Assembly: GCA_044226015.1 (NCBI GenBank)
Contig: JBGAHS010000004.1
Span: 256,001-320,000 of the forward strand
Reading direction: 5' to 3'
DNA: 64,000 nucleotides
Origin: Candidatus Obscuribacteraceae bacterium
Lineage (GTDB): Bacteria; Cyanobacteriota; Vampirovibrionia; Obscuribacterales; Obscuribacteraceae
This document shows positions 1 to 7,431 of the stretch, piece by piece. The notes under the pieces are model-generated. The model saw only the letters and a list, made by a program, of their open reading frames with translations. It was not told where the DNA came from and ran no database searches. Each line of letters opens with the position of its first letter. The stretch's first letter is position 1. The position numbers and the translations under genes were made by a program.

Positions 1-1021
1 ATACGCCAAAGCTTATTCTGGCTAGTTTCACCCCTGGTGTATCTGCCAGTGAATTCAAAATGCCTTCTCCTGAAGCTTTATTGCTGCAAGACAGAATGTA
101 ACGCAAGACAGTCCCAGCTCCCTGCAGTTCGCGTTTCTCGACTATGTTAACTGAGCCGGCGGCGACTCGGACTATTTTTTCTATCTCTGAGATCTGGCAC
201 GCAGTATCGTCGATCTGTAAATCGAGCAGGGCGTAGTCGTTTAGTATGGCAATTCCGCTCAACTCTGGGCATGCCGATTGTAATTTGCTAACAACGGTTC
301 CAGAATTTGCGACATTGAAAACATTTCGGATGCGAATGTCTAATCCATTTTCATTAGCGCATTCAACTGCTCTTGGATGTATTACTTGCGCTCCGTTGGC
401 GGCTAGTTCGAGGCAGTCTTCATAAGATAGTTTTTCGTGCTGAATAGCACCATTAATAATATTTGGGTCTGCGCTGAAGATTCCATCTACGTCAGTATAT
501 ATCTCACATTCGTTGGACCCAATAGCTGCGCAGATAGCAACCGCAGATGTATCTGAGCCGCCTCGTCCTAATGTTGTTATGTCGCCCTGGCTCGTCACTC
601 CCTGAAATCCGGCAACTACGATTACGTCGTTTTCTTGAAATGCGTCAAGTATTTTTTCTTTGTTGATACTCAGTATTTCTGCATTTCCGTAATTGGCTTC
701 AGTGACAATTCCCAATTGAGTTCCGGTGAAAGACTTTGCCTTGATGCCGTGATCTTTGAGAATAATACTAAGCAAAGCGATTGTCTGTTGCTCTCCGCAA
801 GACAGTAGTACATCGAGCTCGCGGCGGTCTGGCTCATCTGCGCAAAGCTCAGCCAGCTGAACTAAGCTGTTTGTGTGATCACCCATGGCAGAAACGATTA
901 CCACGGTTTGGTTCTTATCGCAGTAGCTCGAAACTATCTGCGCCACGTGCGCGAGGCGCTGTGGGCTTTTGACGGATGTGCCACCAAACTTAAGCACTTT
1001 TATTTTCTTGTCTTCTGTCAT
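1..1021 (-). CDS. lysC: Aspartate kinase (runs off the left edge of the window)
   Basis: Not in the ORF track. Manual translation from ATG at 1021 gives MTEDKKIKVLKFGGTSV...VIVSAMG..., later VAGFQG, TTLGRGGSDTSA and IYTDVDG, the amino-acid kinase family motifs. A GGAG RBS lies upstream. Confidence 0.9.
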   Translation of the reverse strand, partial: MTEDKKIKVLKFGGTSVKSPQRLAHVAQIVSSYCDKNQTVVIVSAMGDHTNSLVQLAELCADEPDRRELDVLLSCGEQQTIALLSIILKDHGIKAKSFTGTQLGIVTEANYGNAEILSINKEKILDAFQENDVIVVAGFQGVTSQGDITTLGRGGSDTSAVAICAAIGSNECEIYTDVDGIFSADPNIINGAIQHEKLSYEDCLELAANGAQVIHPRAVECANENGLDIRIRNVFNVANSGTVVSKLQSACPELSGIAILNDYALLDLQIDDTACQISEIEKIVRVAAGSVNIVEKRELQGAGTVLRYILSCSNKASGEGILNSLADTPGVKLARISFGV

Positions 1022-1053
1022 TTTAATTCTCTTCTCCATCTGGTCTTAAAGTT

Positions 1054-2250
1054 CTAGACTGCGATTTTGCTTGCACGTTCTGCAAAGCAAATCGCGTAAT
1101 CGATGTCGTTTATGAGGTCATCGGCGCTTTCTATGCCCACCGATAAACGCACGAGTCCATCCACTATTCCAAGTTGATCTCTAACTTCTTTGGGAATCGG
1201 AGCGTGTGTCATGCTTGCAGGATGGCAGAGGAGTGATTTGACACCACCCAGACTCTCGGCCAGTTGGAAAAGTTCGGTGCTGTTAACGAAGTCTCTGGCT
1301 GCGGCGAAGCCGCCTTTTAGCACAAACGAAACGACTCCGCCGAATCCCTTCATCTGTTTCTTTGCAAGAAGATGCTGGGGATGGCTCTCAAGCCCCGGAT
1401 AAAAAACTCTGTCAACGAGCTTATTCTCACTCAGGAAATTTGCGACTAATGTAGCATTTCTTTCGTGTTCTTTCATTCTCAACGAAAGCGTTTTAATTCC
1501 ACGTAGTGTTAAGAACGAGTCGAAGGGTCCGGGCACCGCGCCGGCAGCATTTTGAATGAATTTCAGTTCCTCATATAGGTCTGCGCGATTGGTGATTATG
1601 GCACCGCCTATGATATCGCTGTGTCCGCTCAGGTACTTTGTTGTGCTATGAACGATTATATCTGCGCCGAGTTCAAGTGGCTTTTGAAAATATGGCGTCG
1701 CAAAAGTATTGTCTACGGCAAGCAGTATATTTTCTCTTTTGCATATTGCGCTTATTTCTTCTATGTCCGCAAGGTTTAGAAGCGGGTTAGTGGGTGTTTC
1801 GATCCACACCAGTTTTGTGTTGCTTTTTATTGCATTTGCAATTTCTTCGGGTACGCTGGCATCGACGTAGCTAAAGTCAATATTGAATTTGCGTTTTACT
1901 CGTTCAAATAATCTATAAACACCACCATAAACGTCTTTGCCTACGATTACATGATCTCCGGCTGAAAGTATGTCAGCTACGATTGATACAGCCGCGAGCC
2001 CCGATGCGCAGCCAATGCCGAACTCCGCTCCCTCAAGTGAGGACAGGCAAGACTCTAGAGCGCTTCTGGTTGGATTATGGCTGCGTGCATACTGATACCC
2101 TTTGTTTTTACCCAACTCATCTAGAACAAAAGTTGATGTTTGATAGATTGGAGTTATCAGCGCTCCTGTTGCTGCGTCTTTTTCTTGTCCTTGATGAATA
2201 GCCAGAGTTTCGAAGCTATATTGTTGGTTTTTGTTGCGTAGTTTGCTCAT
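1054..2250 (-). CDS. metB: PLP-dependent cystathionine gamma-synthase/lyase (Cys/Met metabolism family)
   Basis: Motifs YARSHNPT, ETPTNP, VDNTFATP, HSTTKYLSGHSD (PLP lysine), AESLGG and RLSVGIE. Synthase versus lyase specificity is inferred from the context next to lysC. Confidence 0.85.
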   Translation of the reverse strand: MSKLRNKNQQYSFETLAIHQGQEKDAATGALITPIYQTSTFVLDELGKNKGYQYARSHNPTRSALESCLSSLEGAEFGIGCASGLAAVSIVADILSAGDHVIVGKDVYGGVYRLFERVKRKFNIDFSYVDASVPEEIANAIKSNTKLVWIETPTNPLLNLADIEEISAICKRENILLAVDNTFATPYFQKPLELGADIIVHSTTKYLSGHSDIIGGAIITNRADLYEELKFIQNAAGAVPGPFDSFLTLRGIKTLSLRMKEHERNATLVANFLSENKLVDRVFYPGLESHPQHLLAKKQMKGFGGVVSFVLKGGFAAARDFVNSTELFQLAESLGGVKSLLCHPASMTHAPIPKEVRDQLGIVDGLVRLSVGIESADDLINDIDYAICFAERASKIAV

Positions 2251-2261
2251 TGAAAATCTCC

Positions 2262-2297
2262 AAAAGAAAACGCCCTTCCCGGAAAGAGAAGGGCGTT
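2262..2297 (-). terminator. Intrinsic terminator (attenuator) just upstream of the metB RBS
   Basis: Minus strand reads AACGCCCTTC-tctttccgg-GAAGGGCGTT followed by TTCTTTT, then the GGAG RBS and the metB ATG. Confidence 0.85.
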
Positions 2298-2319
2298 GTG
2301 TGCTCAGTAATCTAAAGAC

Positions 2320-2397
2320 TTATCTGAACCCGGACGACAACACACCTTCCCGCTGGGGAGGCATTGGCATGTTCATCATCATCATTGAGTTCGTCAT
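2320..2397 (-). CDS. Met-rich leader peptide MTNSMMMMNMPMPPQREGVLSSGFR (alternative start at 2406 adds MTC)
   Basis: Four consecutive ATG codons plus two more internal Met codons, ending 22 nt before the terminator and in front of Met biosynthesis genes. Confidence 0.8.
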   Translation of the reverse strand: MTNSMMMMNMPMPPQREGVLSSGFR

Positions 2398-2404
2398 GCA
2401 GGTC

Positions 2405-2432
2405 ATTATGCTCTCGATTTCGGAAATTACAA
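2405..2432 (-). promoter_or_regulatory. Putative sigma70 promoter of the leader-metB-lysC operon
   Basis: TTGTAA-N16-CATAAT on the minus strand. The -10 box ends 7 nt before ATG 2397, consistent with a leaderless transcript. A CTCTCG...CGAGAG inverted repeat (2411-2439) overlaps it. Confidence 0.5.
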
Positions 2433-2577
2433 GCGAGAGAATTCTTATTGGTAACATTTCGGAATAATTTTTTGGAAGATCCATATATGTTATTGAGTGC
2501 ACAATCGTTGACTTTCGCAAGTGGCTAGCTGCTGCCAGGAAAAGAAGAGAATAGTGGGTTCTGCTGGTGTTAAGTTC

Positions 2578-3063
2578 TTAGCTATTCTGTCGCTTCAGTT
2601 GAATCTCGACTCTCACTTCTTCGGGTGAAGGTGCGCAGCACGCAGACTTCTTCGCCATTGGAGCATCACTTGAGCTCACCTCATTGTCGTCACCATATAC
2701 GGTGGATTCACCGGTGGTGAGAAAAGTTTCCCAGGCTATGCCTTGTGGATCTACTACCCATGCTTTTTCCGACTTGGCATAACAACAAGTGGTCGCACCT
2801 TCATCCAGAACCTGCATGTTTGCTTGTTTTAGGCGGGAGGAAACTTCTTGAAGCTCTTCTGTGTTTTCAACTTGAACGCCAAGATGGTCTAGCCCCGGTT
2901 CTCTGCCTCGAGCTGAAATTGCAAAATTCACGCGGGGATCATCTAGCATCCATTTTGCGTAGTCTTGCTTCGAAACCGAAGGTCCGGTGCCGAAAAGATT
3001 TGAATAAAACTCGGTGGATTTTTGCAAGTCCTCAACTGCCACATGCACGTGTAGTCTTTTCAT
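2578..3063 (-). CDS. arsI: ArsI/CadI-family VOC (glyoxalase-like) metalloenzyme
   Basis: MKRLHVHVAV...YAKWML..PRVNFAIS...LDHLGVQV...TTCCYAKSEKAWVVDPQGIAWETF, with the vicinal CC. TAATG coupling to arsR. Confidence 0.8.
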   Translation of the reverse strand: MKRLHVHVAVEDLQKSTEFYSNLFGTGPSVSKQDYAKWMLDDPRVNFAISARGREPGLDHLGVQVENTEELQEVSSRLKQANMQVLDEGATTCCYAKSEKAWVVDPQGIAWETFLTTGESTVYGDDNEVSSSDAPMAKKSACCAPSPEEVRVEIQLKRQNS

Positions 3064-3362
3064 TAGCATTTGCCTCCATTGTCAGCGCAGCAATTCTCAA
3101 GCAAAAAGTTGATGAGTGTTTGCATGTGCGCATAATTTGCTGAATATATGATTGAACGACTTTCTCGCCGAGCAGATATTAGTCCTGCATTGGTCAGTTC
3201 CTTTAGATGGAATGACATCGTGGCTGGTGGCATTCCAAAATGTGTACTCAGATCGCCAGCCGCCATTCCTGCGGACCCTTGTCTCACCAAGAGTCGGAAA
3301 ATTTCCAGACGTGTTTCTTGTGCCAATGCCGCCAGGGCGTTGACTGCGTTGTTCGTTTTCAT
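3063..3362 (-). CDS. arsR: ArsR/SmtB-family repressor
   Basis: ALAALAQETRLEIFRLLV...TMSFHLKELTNAGLI...RSIIYSANY...LLENCC: ArsR HTH with C-terminal vicinal cysteines. Confidence 0.9.
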   Translation of the reverse strand: MKTNNAVNALAALAQETRLEIFRLLVRQGSAGMAAGDLSTHFGMPPATMSFHLKELTNAGLISARRESRSIIYSANYAHMQTLINFLLENCCADNGGKC

Positions 3363-3398
3363 ATTTCCAATAATATCGAAATGTTGTTTCTTGGTCAA
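3363..3398 (-). promoter_or_regulatory. arsR promoter with overlapping operator palindrome
   Basis: TTGACC-N17-TATTAT, ending 7 nt before the ATG. An inverted repeat ATTTC-N10-GAAAT lies at 3363-3382. Confidence 0.6.
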
Positions 3399-3518
3399 GC
3401 CCTTTCGAGTGTATTAAAATGGTGGTTTTTGAAGAAAATGGAGCAGAGTAGTTCGAAAAAGAATAATTTGGACCCATTTTGAAGAAATTGGACCCAGGTC
3501 GAGTTTTTTTTTGTTGAG

Positions 3519-3716
3519 ATGCCGGATCTAATTGCTGAGCGATTCGTGCTTTTTGTGCATAGAAATGGTGGCACTCTTCCAAACAAGCGAAGGAAGAGAG
3601 AATTCGCTGCATTGAAAGATGAAGAGCTTACAAACTTGGAAGAAATAGTTCGCGACGCATTCGATGGTTTCGAAGAGGTGGCTGGAACAGATCTGCGCCG
3701 GGCTTCGGAAGATTAG
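3519..3716 (+). pseudogene. C-terminal remnant resembling Fic-family proteins
   Basis: MPD...FVLFVHRNGGTLPNKRRKREFAALKDEEL..LE.IVRDAF resembles the C-terminal tail of long Fic proteins (recalled similarity). No Fic core is present. Confidence 0.45.
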
Positions 3717-3789
3717 CTAAAACCCTGTCTTCCTGTTAGTTCTTGGTGCGAAGGATGTATAATTGTCCGACCATCGAAGGTAATAAATT

Positions 3790-4752
3790 ATGCCAGACCA
3801 AGATTACTTGCAAAATATTAGTAAGCAGCTGCTTGAAGAACTTGATGCTTTTTTTGGCTTGCATAAAGGTTTTCGCCCAGTTCATGCAAAAGGCATTATT
3901 TGCACGGGAACTTTCACTCCTTCTCCTGAGGCTGTTAGTTTAACTTGAGCACCACATGCGCAGAGTTCCTCCACCGATGTGATGGTGCGTTTTTCTAATT
4001 TTGGTGGTTTGCCAATGATTAGCGATACCGATCCGAATGCGGCACCGCGTGGCATTGCTGTGCGATTTAATTTAGCACCACATGTCCACACTGATATTGT
4101 TGCTCACACTAAAAATGGCTTTCCTGTGCGAACTGGCGAAGAATTCTTGGACGTTCTAAAGGCTCTTGTTGCAAGCCGTGACAGCGCAGGCAGTCCATCT
4201 CCTTTCGAGCAATATCTGGCTGCACATCCAAAAGCCAAAGAATTTTTCACTACGCCCAACCCAGTTCCTGCGAGTTTTTCCACCGAATCCTTTTATGCAG
4301 TCAATGCTTTCAAGTTCACGAACAAAGAAGGTAAATCTTGTTATGGGCGCTTACAAATTTTGCCGGAAACTGAGGCGGAGTATTTGGATGATGCTGTAGT
4401 AAAAACGAAGGGTAGTGAATTTCTATTCAATGAATTGGAAGAACGCGTCAAGAACGGAACTATCAAAATGCGTATTGTCGTTGAGCTCGCACCTGATGGA
4501 ACCGAAGTAAATGACGCTACTATTTGCTGGGGCGAAAATAGCAAGAAATTGCCTTTTGGCACCATCGAATTGAACAAACTTGTACCTCCAGGCGATGTTG
4601 AATCTGACAGAGTTATTTTTGATCCGATTCCACGCGTGGATGGCATTGACCCTTCGGACGATCCACTAATTGAGTTGCGTGCGGCAATTTACCTTTTGAC
4701 AGGACGCCGGCGTCGAGCTGCAGTAAAAGAGCGTGAGCATTCACAAGCTTAA
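3790..4752 (+). pseudogene. Catalase-related peroxidase (SrpA-like) with an in-frame TGA
   Basis: ATG 3790 gives MPDQDY...GFRPVHAKG...SLT*APH...VRFS in the same frame as ORF 3979-4752 (PRGIAVRF, SDDPLIELRAAIY). TGA at 3946-3948. Confidence 0.85.
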
Positions 4753-4823
4753 GCATGAAATTTGAGGAAATTGGAACCTCGGTTAGAATTCTCGAGCGAT
4801 CTGGAAGCTTATTTTGCAAGCAT

Positions 4824-5430
4824 TCAGGAGGCTTTGTTTAGTATTCGAGACCAAAACATTTGGGCACCACTAGTGGTGTACTGGCTCATTAGTGAGTGCA
4901 TCAAAGATAGATGAACGCCTGCTTTTATATCCAGGTCGTAACTGAGTAAATGGAAATGACGCAAAAATTGAAACAACCGATCATCGGGTACTTCAACTCC
5001 GGCGTTTGCCTTCTTGAGCTGTTCCCTGAATGCTTTCAACTTGTCTTGTTTGTCTTTGCTGCTCAAATTGGACATATCAACCATGCGCAGAAATTCTTCT
5101 GCACTGTTCGTATGTCTCGCCCATTCCAAAATTCCACGGGCGCCACTGATGTCAGTGTTGCTTAATGGTCCTGTTATCAAAGCAATCGAATCGCTACCTT
5201 CAGTGAACAAATCAGGATTATTGAAATCGTTCCACGCAGCTTGAATCACTTCTCCAAACACTTTACCGGCAGTTGTTATCGCCACAGTATGCTTTATCTG
5301 AGCCAACAGGTTTCGCTGCTGATCGCCACTGAGTTTCTCGACAAAGACAATCATTCGTCAGTGTCGAATCCGTCCATCTTTCCCTGCAACTTAATCTTCA
5401 AGATGGGCCAGCATGGCAACGATGGCGCGA
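4824..5430 (-). pseudogene. Truncated, frameshifted N-terminal nuclease-like domain of a large defence-island-type protein
   Basis: APSLPCWPILKIKLQGKMDGFDTD, then a frameshift into MIVFVEK...LLAQIKH, a D...QxK PD-(D/E)XK-like pattern. Truncated at both ends. Confidence 0.5.
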
Positions 5431-5436
5431 GTAAAA

Positions 5437-5535
5437 CTAGTCTGCACGAAAGTCACACTCATGCGCCAGCGGCGTTTCACGACCGTGGATAAGCGTTTCA
5501 TCGATATCCAGGATAAGTAACGGGCGCTGTTCCAT
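5437..5535 (-). pseudogene. N-terminal fragment of an FCP1/NIF-type HAD phosphatase
   Basis: Manual translation MEQRPLLILDIDETLIHGRETPLAHECDFRAD* contains the DxDETLxH motif but only 32 codons. Confidence 0.6.
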
Positions 5536-5622
5536 TCTTCAATACACCAGCTCTGTCGGCGCAACCGCTAAATGTATTCCCGTTTTTCGACATTGGCCTT
5601 CATGATGTAATCTTTGCAAGTG

Positions 5623-5839
5623 GCACCATATATAGTGGCGAGTGAAGCAATTCTTTCGCCGGGTAAGGCAGCGGGTAAGGCGTGCGCTGAGCATCGCGAA
5701 CCGCGCGGGTTAGGCAGTGGGTTAGGTGAGAGAGCGCTGGAGGTTGTCGCCGCGTTCTTAATTTACCGATCGACAAGCGACAGACAAACATCGTTGATAG
5801 TGGTTCTTCACGCTCAACCAATCTGATCGCATTTGCATT
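5623..5839. repeat. att-arm-like non-coding module, copy 1
   Basis: Shares GCACCATATrTAGTGGCG, paired GGGTwAGGC repeats at 12-bp spacing and TCTGATCGCATTTGCATT with 21249-21463. Confidence 0.7.
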
Positions 5840-6816
5840 TGCAGGAGTTGTTCGACCATTACAGAGTTGGGCATTTGCAAAAGAGGGCAAAACGTGTGGC
5901 TGACGCGGAGAACGATTTCAAGCGTTGGTTTGGTTCGCTTGCAAACAAGAAAATATCTTCTTTTATTCATAGCGACGCTCACAGACTGCATGCCAGCATG
6001 TCAAAACGTACTCCGGTATCAGCCAATCGAGCGGTCCAGCTCGGCCGCGCCATGTTTAATTTCGGCATTAGGACACGCTTTATCCAGGGCGAAAATCCTT
6101 TCGGCGGAATAAGTTTAAACAGGGAGGCGGAGCGCGATCGCGTCCTTACAGACGTTGAAGCCGGAAAGCTCTTATCGGCGCTTGACGCAATTCCTGCCAC
6201 GCACTCAGACGAACGTACTTTACGTGATTGGGTGCTGTTATCGCTGATGACTGGAGCACGAAAGGCAAACATTCTCGGCATGCGTTGGGAAGAAGTGGAT
6301 CTAGGCGGCGGTACTTGGACCATACCCGCAGAAAAGATGAAGGGTGGACGAGTGCAAAGCATACCCCTAAACACGCTTGAATTATCCGTTCTGTCAGAGC
6401 GAAAACAATTGTTGAAGAAGGCCCATGTCGTCTCGCCATGGGTCTTTCCTGGGACTGGAAATAAAGGACACATTGTCGATCCTGGAAATGCTTGGGAAAC
6501 TCTACGTTCACGACTTGGGCTAGAAGATTTATGGATTCACGACTTGAGGCGGAGTCTGGCATCCTCAATGGCGAACACCGGAGCAGATGTTTCGATTGTA
6601 CGAGCAGCTCTCAACCATACCGACACGCGAACAACTTTAAAAGCATACATCAGGACTAACCAGCAAGCTCAGCTTGATGCACGACAGAAGGCGCAAGATG
6701 CTTGGCTCGAGGCGATGAAGCGGCAATCAAAAACAACGCCAGATCCAACTGATGAGTCAGGACAGCCTGTCGTATCAATCTCCAAACGCAAGCGTAAGAA
6801 GAAAAAAAATCACTAA
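5833..6816 (+). CDS. Tyrosine integrase, probably N-terminally truncated
   Basis: Catalytic set TGARKANI (R), MKGG (K), HDLRR, LNH and TLKAY. The TTG start lies inside the att-like motif and no arm-binding domain is present. Confidence 0.8.
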   Translation: MHLQELFDHYRVGHLQKRAKRVADAENDFKRWFGSLANKKISSFIHSDAHRLHASMSKRTPVSANRAVQLGRAMFNFGIRTRFIQGENPFGGISLNREAERDRVLTDVEAGKLLSALDAIPATHSDERTLRDWVLLSLMTGARKANILGMRWEEVDLGGGTWTIPAEKMKGGRVQSIPLNTLELSVLSERKQLLKKAHVVSPWVFPGTGNKGHIVDPGNAWETLRSRLGLEDLWIHDLRRSLASSMANTGADVSIVRAALNHTDTRTTLKAYIRTNQQAQLDARQKAQDAWLEAMKRQSKTTPDPTDESGQPVVSISKRKRKKKKNH

Positions 6817-6887
6817 ATCGTATCGGCTAGCCTAGAATGTCCAATTAACGACCTTTTCAGCTCAATCAGGATTTGTGAGGTCATTTT

Positions 6888-6949
6888 CGAATATTGACAA
6901 TATTGCGATTGTTTCGAGTGTTGCGAATATTGCGAATAGATGGTATGTT
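6888..6949 (+). promoter_or_regulatory. Promoter overlaid by six 9-bp tandem repeats (CGAATATTG-like), a likely antitoxin operator
   Basis: Repeats at 6888-6941. TTGCGA(6921)-N17-TATGTT(6944) with a TG extension. Confidence 0.5.
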
Positions 6950-6975
6950 CTGTATATAGTGACCAGGACGGAATT

Positions 6976-7431
6976 ATGCCAGCATTAGCAGATGAACCAT
7001 TGCTACCAACAGCACAAGACGTAAGAGTGGCTACGGAATTGATTTTCGAACTTAACTCTGCCAAAGGAAAGCGACGTCCCAAGTTTTTGCTTTCCAGCAA
7101 CAAAGGTGAACAGATCGAGCTTTCAGAAGGTGCTTACGTTCTTCTTGTGAAGGTCTTGGAGGAGATGTCCAAGGGCAACGGAATAATGGTGATGCCAATA
7201 CACGCGGAGCTTACGACGCAGCAAGCAGCAGATTTCCTAAATGTGTCACGGCCTTTTCTCATTGGTCTGCTTGAAAAAGGAGAATTGCCTTTTCGGACTG
7301 TAGGCCGTCACAGGCGAGTTCGCTTGGAAGATATGATGAAATACAAGAAGCTCAATGATGAAAAACGCTTGGCGGCATTGGACGAGCTTGTCGCCCAGGC
7401 GCAAGAGCTTAATCTGGGCTATGGGCGCTGA
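6976..7431 (+). CDS. Excisionase-family HTH DNA-binding protein (putative antitoxin)
   Basis: ELTTQQAADFLNVSRPFLIGLLEKGELPFRTVGRHRRV (HTH_17-like). TGATG coupling to the PIN gene. Confidence 0.85.
   Translation: MPALADEPLLPTAQDVRVATELIFELNSAKGKRRPKFLLSSNKGEQIELSEGAYVLLVKVLEEMSKGNGIMVMPIHAELTTQQAADFLNVSRPFLIGLLEKGELPFRTVGRHRRVRLEDMMKYKKLNDEKRLAALDELVAQAQELNLGYGR

Follow-up and report, generated by a model that had tools for sequence, protein, structure and literature searches.

A short leader on the minus strand of the window (the whole 64-kb stretch of DNA analyzed here, from a Candidatus Obscuribacteraceae genome) likely works as a transcription attenuator of the classical ribosome-mediated kind, with charged elongator Met-tRNA as the signal it senses. 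We favor this reading because a conserved Met-rich open reading frame (ORF) lies at the predicted transcript start, and is accompanied by mutually exclusive hairpins, an intrinsic terminator, and a sulfur-amino-acid operon (Table 1). The Met leader is real and conserved, and most likely functional. To judge from sequence and modeled folds, all of the computable features of an attenuator are present, except for the role of the downstream enzyme. The host belongs to the Obscuribacterales, an order within the cyanobacterial phylum that is uncultured and lacks photosynthesis.

Table 1. Elements of the predicted methionine leader and the genes behind it (coordinates in the 64-kb window)
Feature	Position	Strand	Basis and remarks
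-35 hexamer TTGTAA	2427..2432	-	Promoter match; TTGACA-like in most relatives
-10 hexamer CATAAT	2405..2410	-	16 nt after the -35 hexamer, 7 nt ahead of ATG 2397
Leader ORF MTNSMMMMNMPMPPQREGVLSSGFR	2320..2397	-	25 codons plus TAA at 2322-2320; sequence
Regulatory Met codons 5-8, 10, and 12	2362..2385	-	Sequence and frame counts in relatives
Segment 1 (anti-antiterminator strand)	2355..2364	-	Pairs with 2351-2342; fold and covariation
Segment 2 (purine tract plus extension)	2334..2351	-	Partner is segment 1 or segment 3; fold
Inner hairpin of the antiterminator arm	2302..2329	-	Includes the leader stop codon; predicted fold
Segment 3 (antiterminator 3' strand, including the terminator 5' arm)	2286..2301	-	Fold
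Intrinsic terminator	2262..2297	-	12-bp stem 2297-2269, U-tract 2268-2262; terminator match, fold, covariation
Shine-Dalgarno-like GGAGA of the first structural gene (start ATG 2250)	2257..2261	-	Sequence
PLP enzyme, cystathionine gamma-synthase/gamma-lyase family, "metB-like" label	1054..2250	-	398 aa; NCBIfam PRK07811
Aspartate kinase	1..1039	-	423 aa, extends beyond the left edge of the window; family assignment

The original prediction, a methionine-sensing leader-peptide attenuator, had named a -10 box, an ORF with its Met codons, the pairing segments, and a terminator, and re-reading of the sequence found all of these correctly placed, together with the U-tract and a GGAG ahead of ATG 2250. 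On the minus strand, segment 1 contains CCUCCCC (2361-2355), and segment 2 contains both GGGAAGG (2351-2345) and GAAGGUGUGUUG (2349-2338). The window's leader ORF carries six internal Met codons within 11 codons, and Cys is absent from it. The transcript is predicted to be leaderless, starting at or next to 2397. Other starts for the ORF were considered and rejected: an earlier in-frame ATG, at 2406, shares bases with the -10 box, and ORFs lengthened to 2457 or 2484 would start ahead of the promoter; relatives retain only the ATG that lies 6-7 nt past the -10 box. In the minimum-energy fold of the window the terminator stem is extended over the Shine-Dalgarno site, and this extension is absent from the centroid.

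Sequence comparison shows the leader ORF to be under selection as a reading frame. Between nucleotides 4 and 57, the 43 distinct leaders contain 159 ATG triplets in frame and none out of frame (55 versus 0 in a set of 14 leaders), and in the leader alignment all length differences between the start and the Met cluster are multiples of three. Methionine makes up 55 of the 168 residues ahead of the last regulatory Met in the 14 leaders, compared with 2.0% genome-wide. The homologous ORFs are 22-34 codons long, with a median pairwise identity between leaders of 49%, and have from two to six internal Met codons (53 loci), just two in only 2 of the 43 distinct leaders. The purine tract begins 6-15 nt past the last Met codon in 16/16 leaders.

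Among the outcomes that would refute it, the original prediction had named a lack of conserved Met codons or stems in relatives, and both turned out to be conserved. In a search of relatives, which returned 29 non-self loci, the same arrangement (promoter and ATG, then the Met-rich ORF and terminator) was found at 12/12 orthologous and 0/17 paralogous loci. Another coding region comes immediately before each of the 17 loci that lack it, and likewise before the paralog in the host's own genome; an aspartate-kinase-like ORF comes next in at least 10 of the 12 orthologous loci. A covariance model built from 16 leaders was then searched against 104 genomes of the family, and at E up to 0.01 it matched 69 of them at 87 places, 60 of these below 1e-10; because the model is bound to match the sequences it was trained on, and the genomes are related, such counts measure inheritance under selection rather than independent origins. 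Inspection covered 52 of the 60 strong matches and 18 of the 27 weaker ones. All 52 strong matches have a Met-rich ORF, followed by a PLP-enzyme gene in 50 cases and directly by aspartate kinase in two. One of the weaker matches is likewise a Met leader ahead of a PLP enzyme, giving 53 Met-leader loci in total.

At every one of these 53 loci the gap from the -10 box to the ATG is either 6 nt (22 loci) or 7 nt (31 loci), which is the distance expected for a leaderless start. Across 2,759 ORFs of the host genome there is an excess of TANNNT 6 nt ahead of start codons (69, versus 18-37 at neighboring gaps), and this small peak suggests that leaderless genes exist in the host. For distant homologues of the PLP enzyme in other phyla, a Met cluster within 350 nt was found at 0 of the 69 loci with enough flank, a count that is not proof of absence because many of these homologues are probably gamma-lyase paralogs or inner genes of operons.

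Folding bears out the alternative structures, with some refinement. The original pairing of segment 1 with segment 2 stands, but one A in the stem is bulged or mismatched, and without a ribosome the stem extends as far as the Met codons, so that 2383-2375 pair with 2341-2333. The competing pairing of segment 2 with the terminator 5' arm is also found in the predicted fold, and is longer than had been proposed. We assumed a ribosome mask reaching 9 nt beyond the A-site codon. With the mask at the last Met, the window transcript ending at the terminator loop is predicted to form a 16-bp antiterminator (2351-2334/2301-2286, -27 kcal/mol) that absorbs the whole 12-nt terminator 5' arm; with the mask at the stop codon, the terminator alone is predicted. 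A fold constrained by a ribosome footprint had been suggested as a check, and when the mask is slid along the ORF the antiterminator is intact with the A site at codons 1-12 and decays from codon 13, the last Met being codon 12. Among the 43 leaders, the stalled-ribosome mask leaves at least 7 of 10 terminator-arm bases sequestered in 33, and a ribosome at the stop leaves no more than two sequestered in 31. At least five U residues occur in the 9 nt after the hairpin in 38/43 leaders, and three or fewer in three.

Comparative evidence bears on both sets of pairings. The 1:2 and 3:4 stems (segments 1 to 4, 3:4 being the terminator) are 87.5% paired, with 8 of 14 pairs changing on both sides, and their covariation of 0.39 exceeds all six slid controls and is reached by 0/500 shuffles. 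For the 2:3 antiterminator, cognate duplexes average -26.4 kcal/mol versus -21.2 for swapped partners (0/20000 permutations), and the inner helix alone, which is not forced by the G-rich and C-rich tracts, averages -10.6 versus -8.5 (4/20000); p-like numbers of this kind are overstated because the genomes are kin and 16 were used to train the model. A downstream control stretch has no cognate preference (18535/20000). The cognate duplex ranks first in only 6/14 leaders (the inner helix in 3/14), and RNAalifold finds an in-register antiterminator core of just 6 bp, with the distal helix out of register across species.

The switch must be kinetic, given two further folding results. In full-length RNA at equilibrium the window terminator still forms under the stall mask, with the antiterminator persisting, at least partly, in only 5/16 leaders; and in transcripts ending at the terminator loop, with no ribosome, the antiterminator is the minimum-energy fold in 37/43 leaders. 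The full-length fold of the untranslated leader contains the terminator in 37/43. A direct-path calculation puts the barrier to escape from the early 1:2 fold at an estimated 7-24 kcal/mol, so an untranslated leader would terminate, much like the "super attenuation" described for trp (PMC1183508). We also considered a "fail-safe" reading, in which absent initiation also yields read-through; it is favored by the thermodynamics and disfavored by the refolding-barrier estimate.

The attenuator would work as follows. The first transcribed base would be the A of ATG 2397 or an adjacent one, giving a leaderless 5' end on which a ribosome would load. When methionine is plentiful, the ribosome would reach the stop codon and mask segment 2; folding then predicts formation of the 2297-2269 hairpin and termination at the U-tract. 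When Met-tRNA is scarce, the ribosome would wait at codons 5-12, masking segment 1 while segment 2 stays free. Free segment 2 is predicted to capture segment 3 before the 3' arm of the terminator has been made, and the polymerase would then read through into the PLP-enzyme and aspartate-kinase genes. A polymerase pause at the 1:2 hairpin could keep ribosome and polymerase in step. One consideration counts against an attenuator: a shortage of methionine would also limit initiator tRNA, block loading, and favor termination. In selective charging, discharge comes first for whichever isoacceptor is used most heavily relative to its tRNA supply, and the others stay charged (as described in PMC1183508). 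We infer that this would resolve the initiation problem if the elongator tRNA is the sensitive one. The host genome has four tRNA genes with a CAT anticodon.

Several other explanations have to be weighed against a Met-tRNA attenuator. Chance, that is, an ATG repeat that happens to lie beside an ordinary terminator, has some points in its favor at the single locus: the promoter and terminator matches alone are about as frequent as expected by chance (2 and 2 found versus 1.3 and 1.3 in shuffles), the host genome (8.19 Mb, 92% complete) has nine copies of (ATG)4, the fold of the window leader has a z-score of -2.25 with 4/200 shuffles equally good, and a loose Met-cluster filter can yield false hits inside coding genes. 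It is the combination of features and their conservation that removes chance, which is refuted by frame selection, covariation, and recurrence (orthologous versus paralogous loci, and every inspected strong match), leaving it extremely improbable. A strict scan of the 8.2-Mb genome for promoter, leaderless short ORF, terminator, and gene gave two hits, with skewed composition only in the Met leader; it was not exhaustive, as a Ser leader found later had escaped it. In the host's own genome the covariance model gave one strong match and three more at E 0.05-0.3, with no clear second copy of the leader. The terminator could instead be governed by a riboswitch or protein-binding leader of a kind yet to be described, with the ORF incidental, and methionine genes are indeed usually described as being under SAM riboswitches, T-boxes, or repressors (PMC4239095, PMC3771891). 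As the original prediction had advised excluding SAM and T-box elements, Rfam was searched at E up to 5 over window positions 1-6000; the only match was a chance one to a rotavirus (E 3.1), and neither SAM-I (RF00162) nor T-box (RF00230), nor MetJ, was found in the 92% complete host genome. The lack of an Rfam match rules out known classes only. However, only 15 of 231 alignment columns are invariant, and 11 of these belong to the -10 box or ATG triplets, leaving no conserved aptamer-like core; low identity with invariant ATGs fits a codon sensor and not an aptamer. Perfect frame selection would also be meaningless for a ligand-binding RNA, and we consider this explanation very unlikely.

It is also conceivable that the leader senses initiation itself (fMet-tRNA supply through leaderless loading, or general translation stress), with the unloaded leader forming the antiterminator. 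The ribosome-free minimum-energy fold at the decision point agrees with this, the fthC motif of streptococci has been proposed to work through a uORF linked to fMet (PMC11109978), and leaders without a codon run occur in the family (see below). Such a sensor would leave unexplained the selection for two to six internal in-frame ATGs, and is opposed by both the barrier to leaving the early 1:2 fold and the terminator held in the untranslated full-length fold; we judge it quite unlikely. Alternatively, the nascent peptide could stall the ribosome on a ligand (SAM or free methionine), with the hairpins relaying the stall. Peptide arrest is exemplified by Arabidopsis CGS1 and by TnaC. The Met residues are mostly spaced M-x-M-x-M (counting from the last Met, Met at -2 in 42 and at -4 in 36 of 43 distinct peptides), with Pro in 28/43 and Ser in 25/43 after the last Met, which speaks for an arrest peptide. 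However, residues between the Mets and past the cluster vary freely, leaders in other families have plain Met runs, and the CCCUCC/GGAGGG hairpin, when translated, itself yields the Pro-Ser-x-Gly bias, while its position differs by one to three codons among several leaders. Moreover, because a stall turns the operon on, product-induced arrest would have the wrong sign for a biosynthetic operon. We therefore regard peptide arrest as unlikely, and prefer the reading of a ribosome that waits for charged elongator Met-tRNA.

The downstream genes had been called metB-lysC. An aspartate kinase and a gene of the cystathionine gamma-synthase/gamma-lyase family are indeed present, but "metB" is no more than a family label, as the PLP enzyme scores exactly at the NCBIfam PRK07811 cut-off (513 bits) and below that of TIGR02080. 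Among solved structures its nearest relatives are gamma-lyases. Identity to the host's own CBS-operon paralog, a gene located behind a cysteine-synthase/CBS-like one, is 59%; the closest named relatives, including Ca. Obscuribacterales, are 74-76% identical. MetA and MetX were found in 0/104 genomes of the family, using queries that both matched in control genomes. Given the gamma-lyase structures and the failure to find MetA or MetX in the 104 genomes, the methionine-biosynthetic activity of the enzyme is putative. The aspartate kinase partner, the separate kinase of the threonine operon, and the sign of the leader argue for biosynthesis. The kinase behind the leader is monofunctional. Plant enzymes use O-phosphohomoserine, and by analogy the PLP enzyme may do so too; a thrB-like gene is present in the host's own genome.

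Met leaders also occur beyond the family. The covariance model itself mostly does not reach that far, with weak matches in 6 of 120 genomes outside the family, and of three inspected, two are Met-rich leaders and one lies inside a coding gene. At metY-like loci of the class Vampirovibrionia (TIGR01326 over cut-off), a Met-rich short ORF lies upstream in 13/22. Ten of these 13 make up 10/10 loci from a single genus in a different family, f5, and at most of them a terminator is clear; of the remaining three, one is doubtful and one is cut off by the inspected range. In a genome of family f3, two tandem Met leaders with terminators precede a small ubiquitin-like protein ending in GG, and in family f6 one genome carries a strong Met leader ahead of an ORF without a family label. 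The metY loci of f6 have a Met ORF in 0/3 cases, with no intergenic leader in 13; matches to the loose Met-cluster filter at 5 of these 13 loci were rejected because they are out of frame and inside coding genes. At metY loci of non-Vampirovibrionia families in the phylum, a Met leader was found in 0/30 (the best 30 of 57 hits). Thus distributed, the leader appears to follow the pathway, not the gene. In the host's own genome, no Met-rich leader was seen within 380-420 nt upstream of the genes that we take, from their motifs, to be metK, metH, a fused methyltransferase/metF-like gene, metG, the hom-thrC-thrB-kinase operon, and the CBS-gamma-lyase operon.

The same genome also contains Trp-, Phe-, Tyr-, and Ser-run leaders with terminators. 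The genes behind them are presumably trpE-like, two DAHP-synthase-like, and serS-like, again to judge from motifs. The Ser leader stands at 27/27 loci of the second seryl-tRNA synthetase, versus 0/3 housekeeping loci. Codon-run attenuators thus seem to be in wide use in the lineage, and this makes a Met attenuator more probable from the outset. Among the weaker model matches there are Cys-rich leaders before cysDN-like genes and Pro-rich leaders before a proS-like gene. ABC transporters in the family are preceded by similar leaderless ORF-terminator leaders without a codon run.

Taken together, a broader reading, to which we give somewhat less than even credence, would have the Met-tRNA attenuator in permanent charge of methionine synthesis in much of the Obscuribacterales family, with versions of divergent sequence in sister families of the class, and would count it among a set of leaderless codon-run attenuators (Met, Ser, Cys, Pro) used throughout the lineage. 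It would work despite the double role of AUG because elongator tRNA discharges before initiator tRNA. The gamma-lyase paralog downstream of the leader would then be the entry enzyme of a route without MetA or MetX, most plausibly acting on O-phosphohomoserine.

The leader can be compared with several known systems. In E. coli metBL, the cystathionine gamma-synthase gene is co-transcribed with a Met-specific aspartate kinase and repressed by MetJ, in contrast to the present host, where MetJ was not found, the kinase is monofunctional, and the PLP enzyme is nearer to gamma-lyases. For Pasteurellales, Vitreschak et al. (2004) reportedly predicted an attenuator ahead of the aspartate kinase gene thrA whose regulatory codons include Met besides Thr and Ile. 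It is reported as a mixed sensor of a shared enzyme and as not leaderless, whereas the present leader is Met-only and predicted leaderless. Classical attenuators (trpL, hisL, leuL, thrL, pheL, ilvL) share with the Met leader an ORF of product codons, the 1:2/2:3/3:4 alternatives, a U-tract terminator, and a downstream biosynthetic operon, putative in the case of the Met leader (PMC1183508, 10.1101/834739). It differs from them in that its codon, AUG, is shared with initiation, its ORF is predicted to be leaderless, its host is of a non-photosynthetic lineage of the cyanobacterial phylum, and it has no sequence relation to Rfam leader families.

The polycysteine sORF attenuators of mycobacteria are leaderless runs of a sulfur-amino-acid codon before sulfur-metabolism genes, as is predicted for the Met leader, but they are described as hiding the Shine-Dalgarno sequence (thus translational), and the tested one acts without transcription termination (10.1101/834739); the Met leader has a conserved terminator and antiterminator, with Met codons and no Cys. 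In Streptomyces lividans, a leaderless short ORF before metNIQ, "metL," has been proposed from RNA-seq as a Met-dependent leader peptide. As presented, it has two internal Met and three Cys codons and no typical intrinsic terminator, and belongs to a transporter operon of a single genome (PMC8079986). The Met T-box of Staphylococcus aureus and the SAM riboswitches also control methionine genes by terminator and antiterminator, and the T-box also reads tRNA charging, but it binds uncharged initiator tRNA directly, without translation (PMC3771891), whereas the Met leader would read elongator tRNA via the ribosome.

In a survey of methionine regulation in Proteobacteria, "attenuat" and "leader peptide" do not occur (PMC4239095), and an Actinobacteria survey saw no conserved RNA structure ahead of methionine operons (PMC1262725). 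Leader peptides are placed in Proteobacteria, Actinobacteria, and some Firmicutes (PMC2965389, PMC4833913), and for cyanobacteria one of these accounts, as of 2016, states that there were no reliable data on attenuation (PMC4833913). The literature searched, largely outside subscription journals, yielded no tested Met-codon transcription attenuator. It is therefore fair to call such an attenuator rarely described, as the original prediction did, the precedents, all weak, being the Streptomyces "metL" proposal, the uORF suggested for fthC, and the reported Pasteurellales prediction. The leader is likely a variant of a known attenuator type, with Met sensing by a leader peptide hardly described before.

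Methionine is a conspicuous gap among the amino acids sensed via leader-peptide attenuation, and the gap is expected because the same shortage should stop the ribosome from starting on the leader. As a compact 150-nt element with 43 natural variants, the Met leader makes this initiation question testable and could double as a genetically encoded sensor of Met-tRNA. Beyond that, it serves to annotate function, pointing to the methionine pathway in a family without a detected homoserine acyltransferase, and it places classical attenuation in the cyanobacterial phylum.

Met-codon leaders besides the one in the window, a predicted leaderless ORF with a terminator before a PLP-enzyme gene and an aspartate-kinase gene, were found in other genomes (see table). 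The leader peptide nearest in sequence to that of the window belongs to the second Met leader of a single genome (locus L144), where a decayed start, similar to the first codons of the PLP gene (cystathionine gamma-synthase/gamma-lyase family), lies between the leader and the aspartate kinase. Behind the tandem Met leaders of a family f3 genome (L199) is a gene for a 109-aa ubiquitin-like protein with a C-terminal GG and weak SAMP1/Urm1 matches, possibly a sulfur carrier for homocysteine synthesis. The 432-aa ORF behind the Met leader of a family f6 genome (L214) matched no Pfam or NCBIfam model. As for the methionine pathway itself, neither MetX (TIGR01392) nor MetA (PF04204) was found in the 104 genomes of the window's own family, f1, although G000, the genome containing the window, carries metH-like and thrB-like genes.

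Leader ORFs, associated genes, and window neighbors
Feature	Location	Strand	Remark
Tandem Met-rich leader ORFs	L199 (G040:C76), about 500-1040	-	one terminator apiece
Second Met leader in a single genome	L144, G006:C151:2592-2775		immediately 5' of aspartate kinase
Strong Met-run leader MQNNTMMMQMMMMQNLM... with terminator	L214, G219:C10:72693-72851	-	5' of 432-aa ORF
Three leader ORFs with a codon run (Trp, Phe, and Tyr, respectively), each with a terminator	G000:C7:767278; C10:286102; C9, ~295 nt upstream of 286751	all -	5' of trpE-like and two DAHP-synthase-like genes
Poly-Ser short ORF MDKFAHLQFSSSSSK with terminator	G000:C8:646542	-	leaderless; 5' of second seryl-tRNA-synthetase-like gene
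ArsR-family regulator and ArsI/CadI-family metalloenzyme	window 2578-3398	-	immediately 5' of Met leader, same strand
Two ORFs: one integrase-like, 327 aa; one excisionase-like with a helix-turn-helix, 163 aa	window 5833-7431	+	translations judged by eye

Elsewhere in the window, the ArsR and ArsI/CadI genes are an ordinary arsenic/metal-response pair, and the integrase-like and excisionase-like translations point to an integrated element.

In G000, the leaders with Phe and Tyr runs look homologous, sharing the start MKR and the end EVHL-x; they are not leaderless. Across this genome, TANNNT occurs 27 nt upstream of start codons 94 times, compared with about 50-70 at nearby gaps, an excess additional to the 6-nt peak.

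Other leaderless short ORFs with terminators are rich in Cys or Cys/Met (L146-L148, L150, L153, L154, L156, L157), and behind them lie cysDN-like genes (L150), a desaturase-family gene (L154), or a gene for a conserved 155-180 aa protein with no Pfam family. At two loci (L152, L158), a leaderless Pro-rich ORF, MFRNSTPPAPSNPTIPVG, and a terminator lie 5' of a prolyl-tRNA-synthetase-like gene. Leaderless short ORFs lacking a codon run, also with a terminator, precede three-gene ABC transporter operons (L149, L151, L155, L159, L160); these may be antibiotic- or stress-responsive attenuators.

Ser-run ORFs accompany the second seryl-tRNA-synthetase paralog at all 27 of its loci (L285-L311) versus none of three housekeeping serS loci, and the poly-Ser leader is a candidate serine-sensing attenuator.
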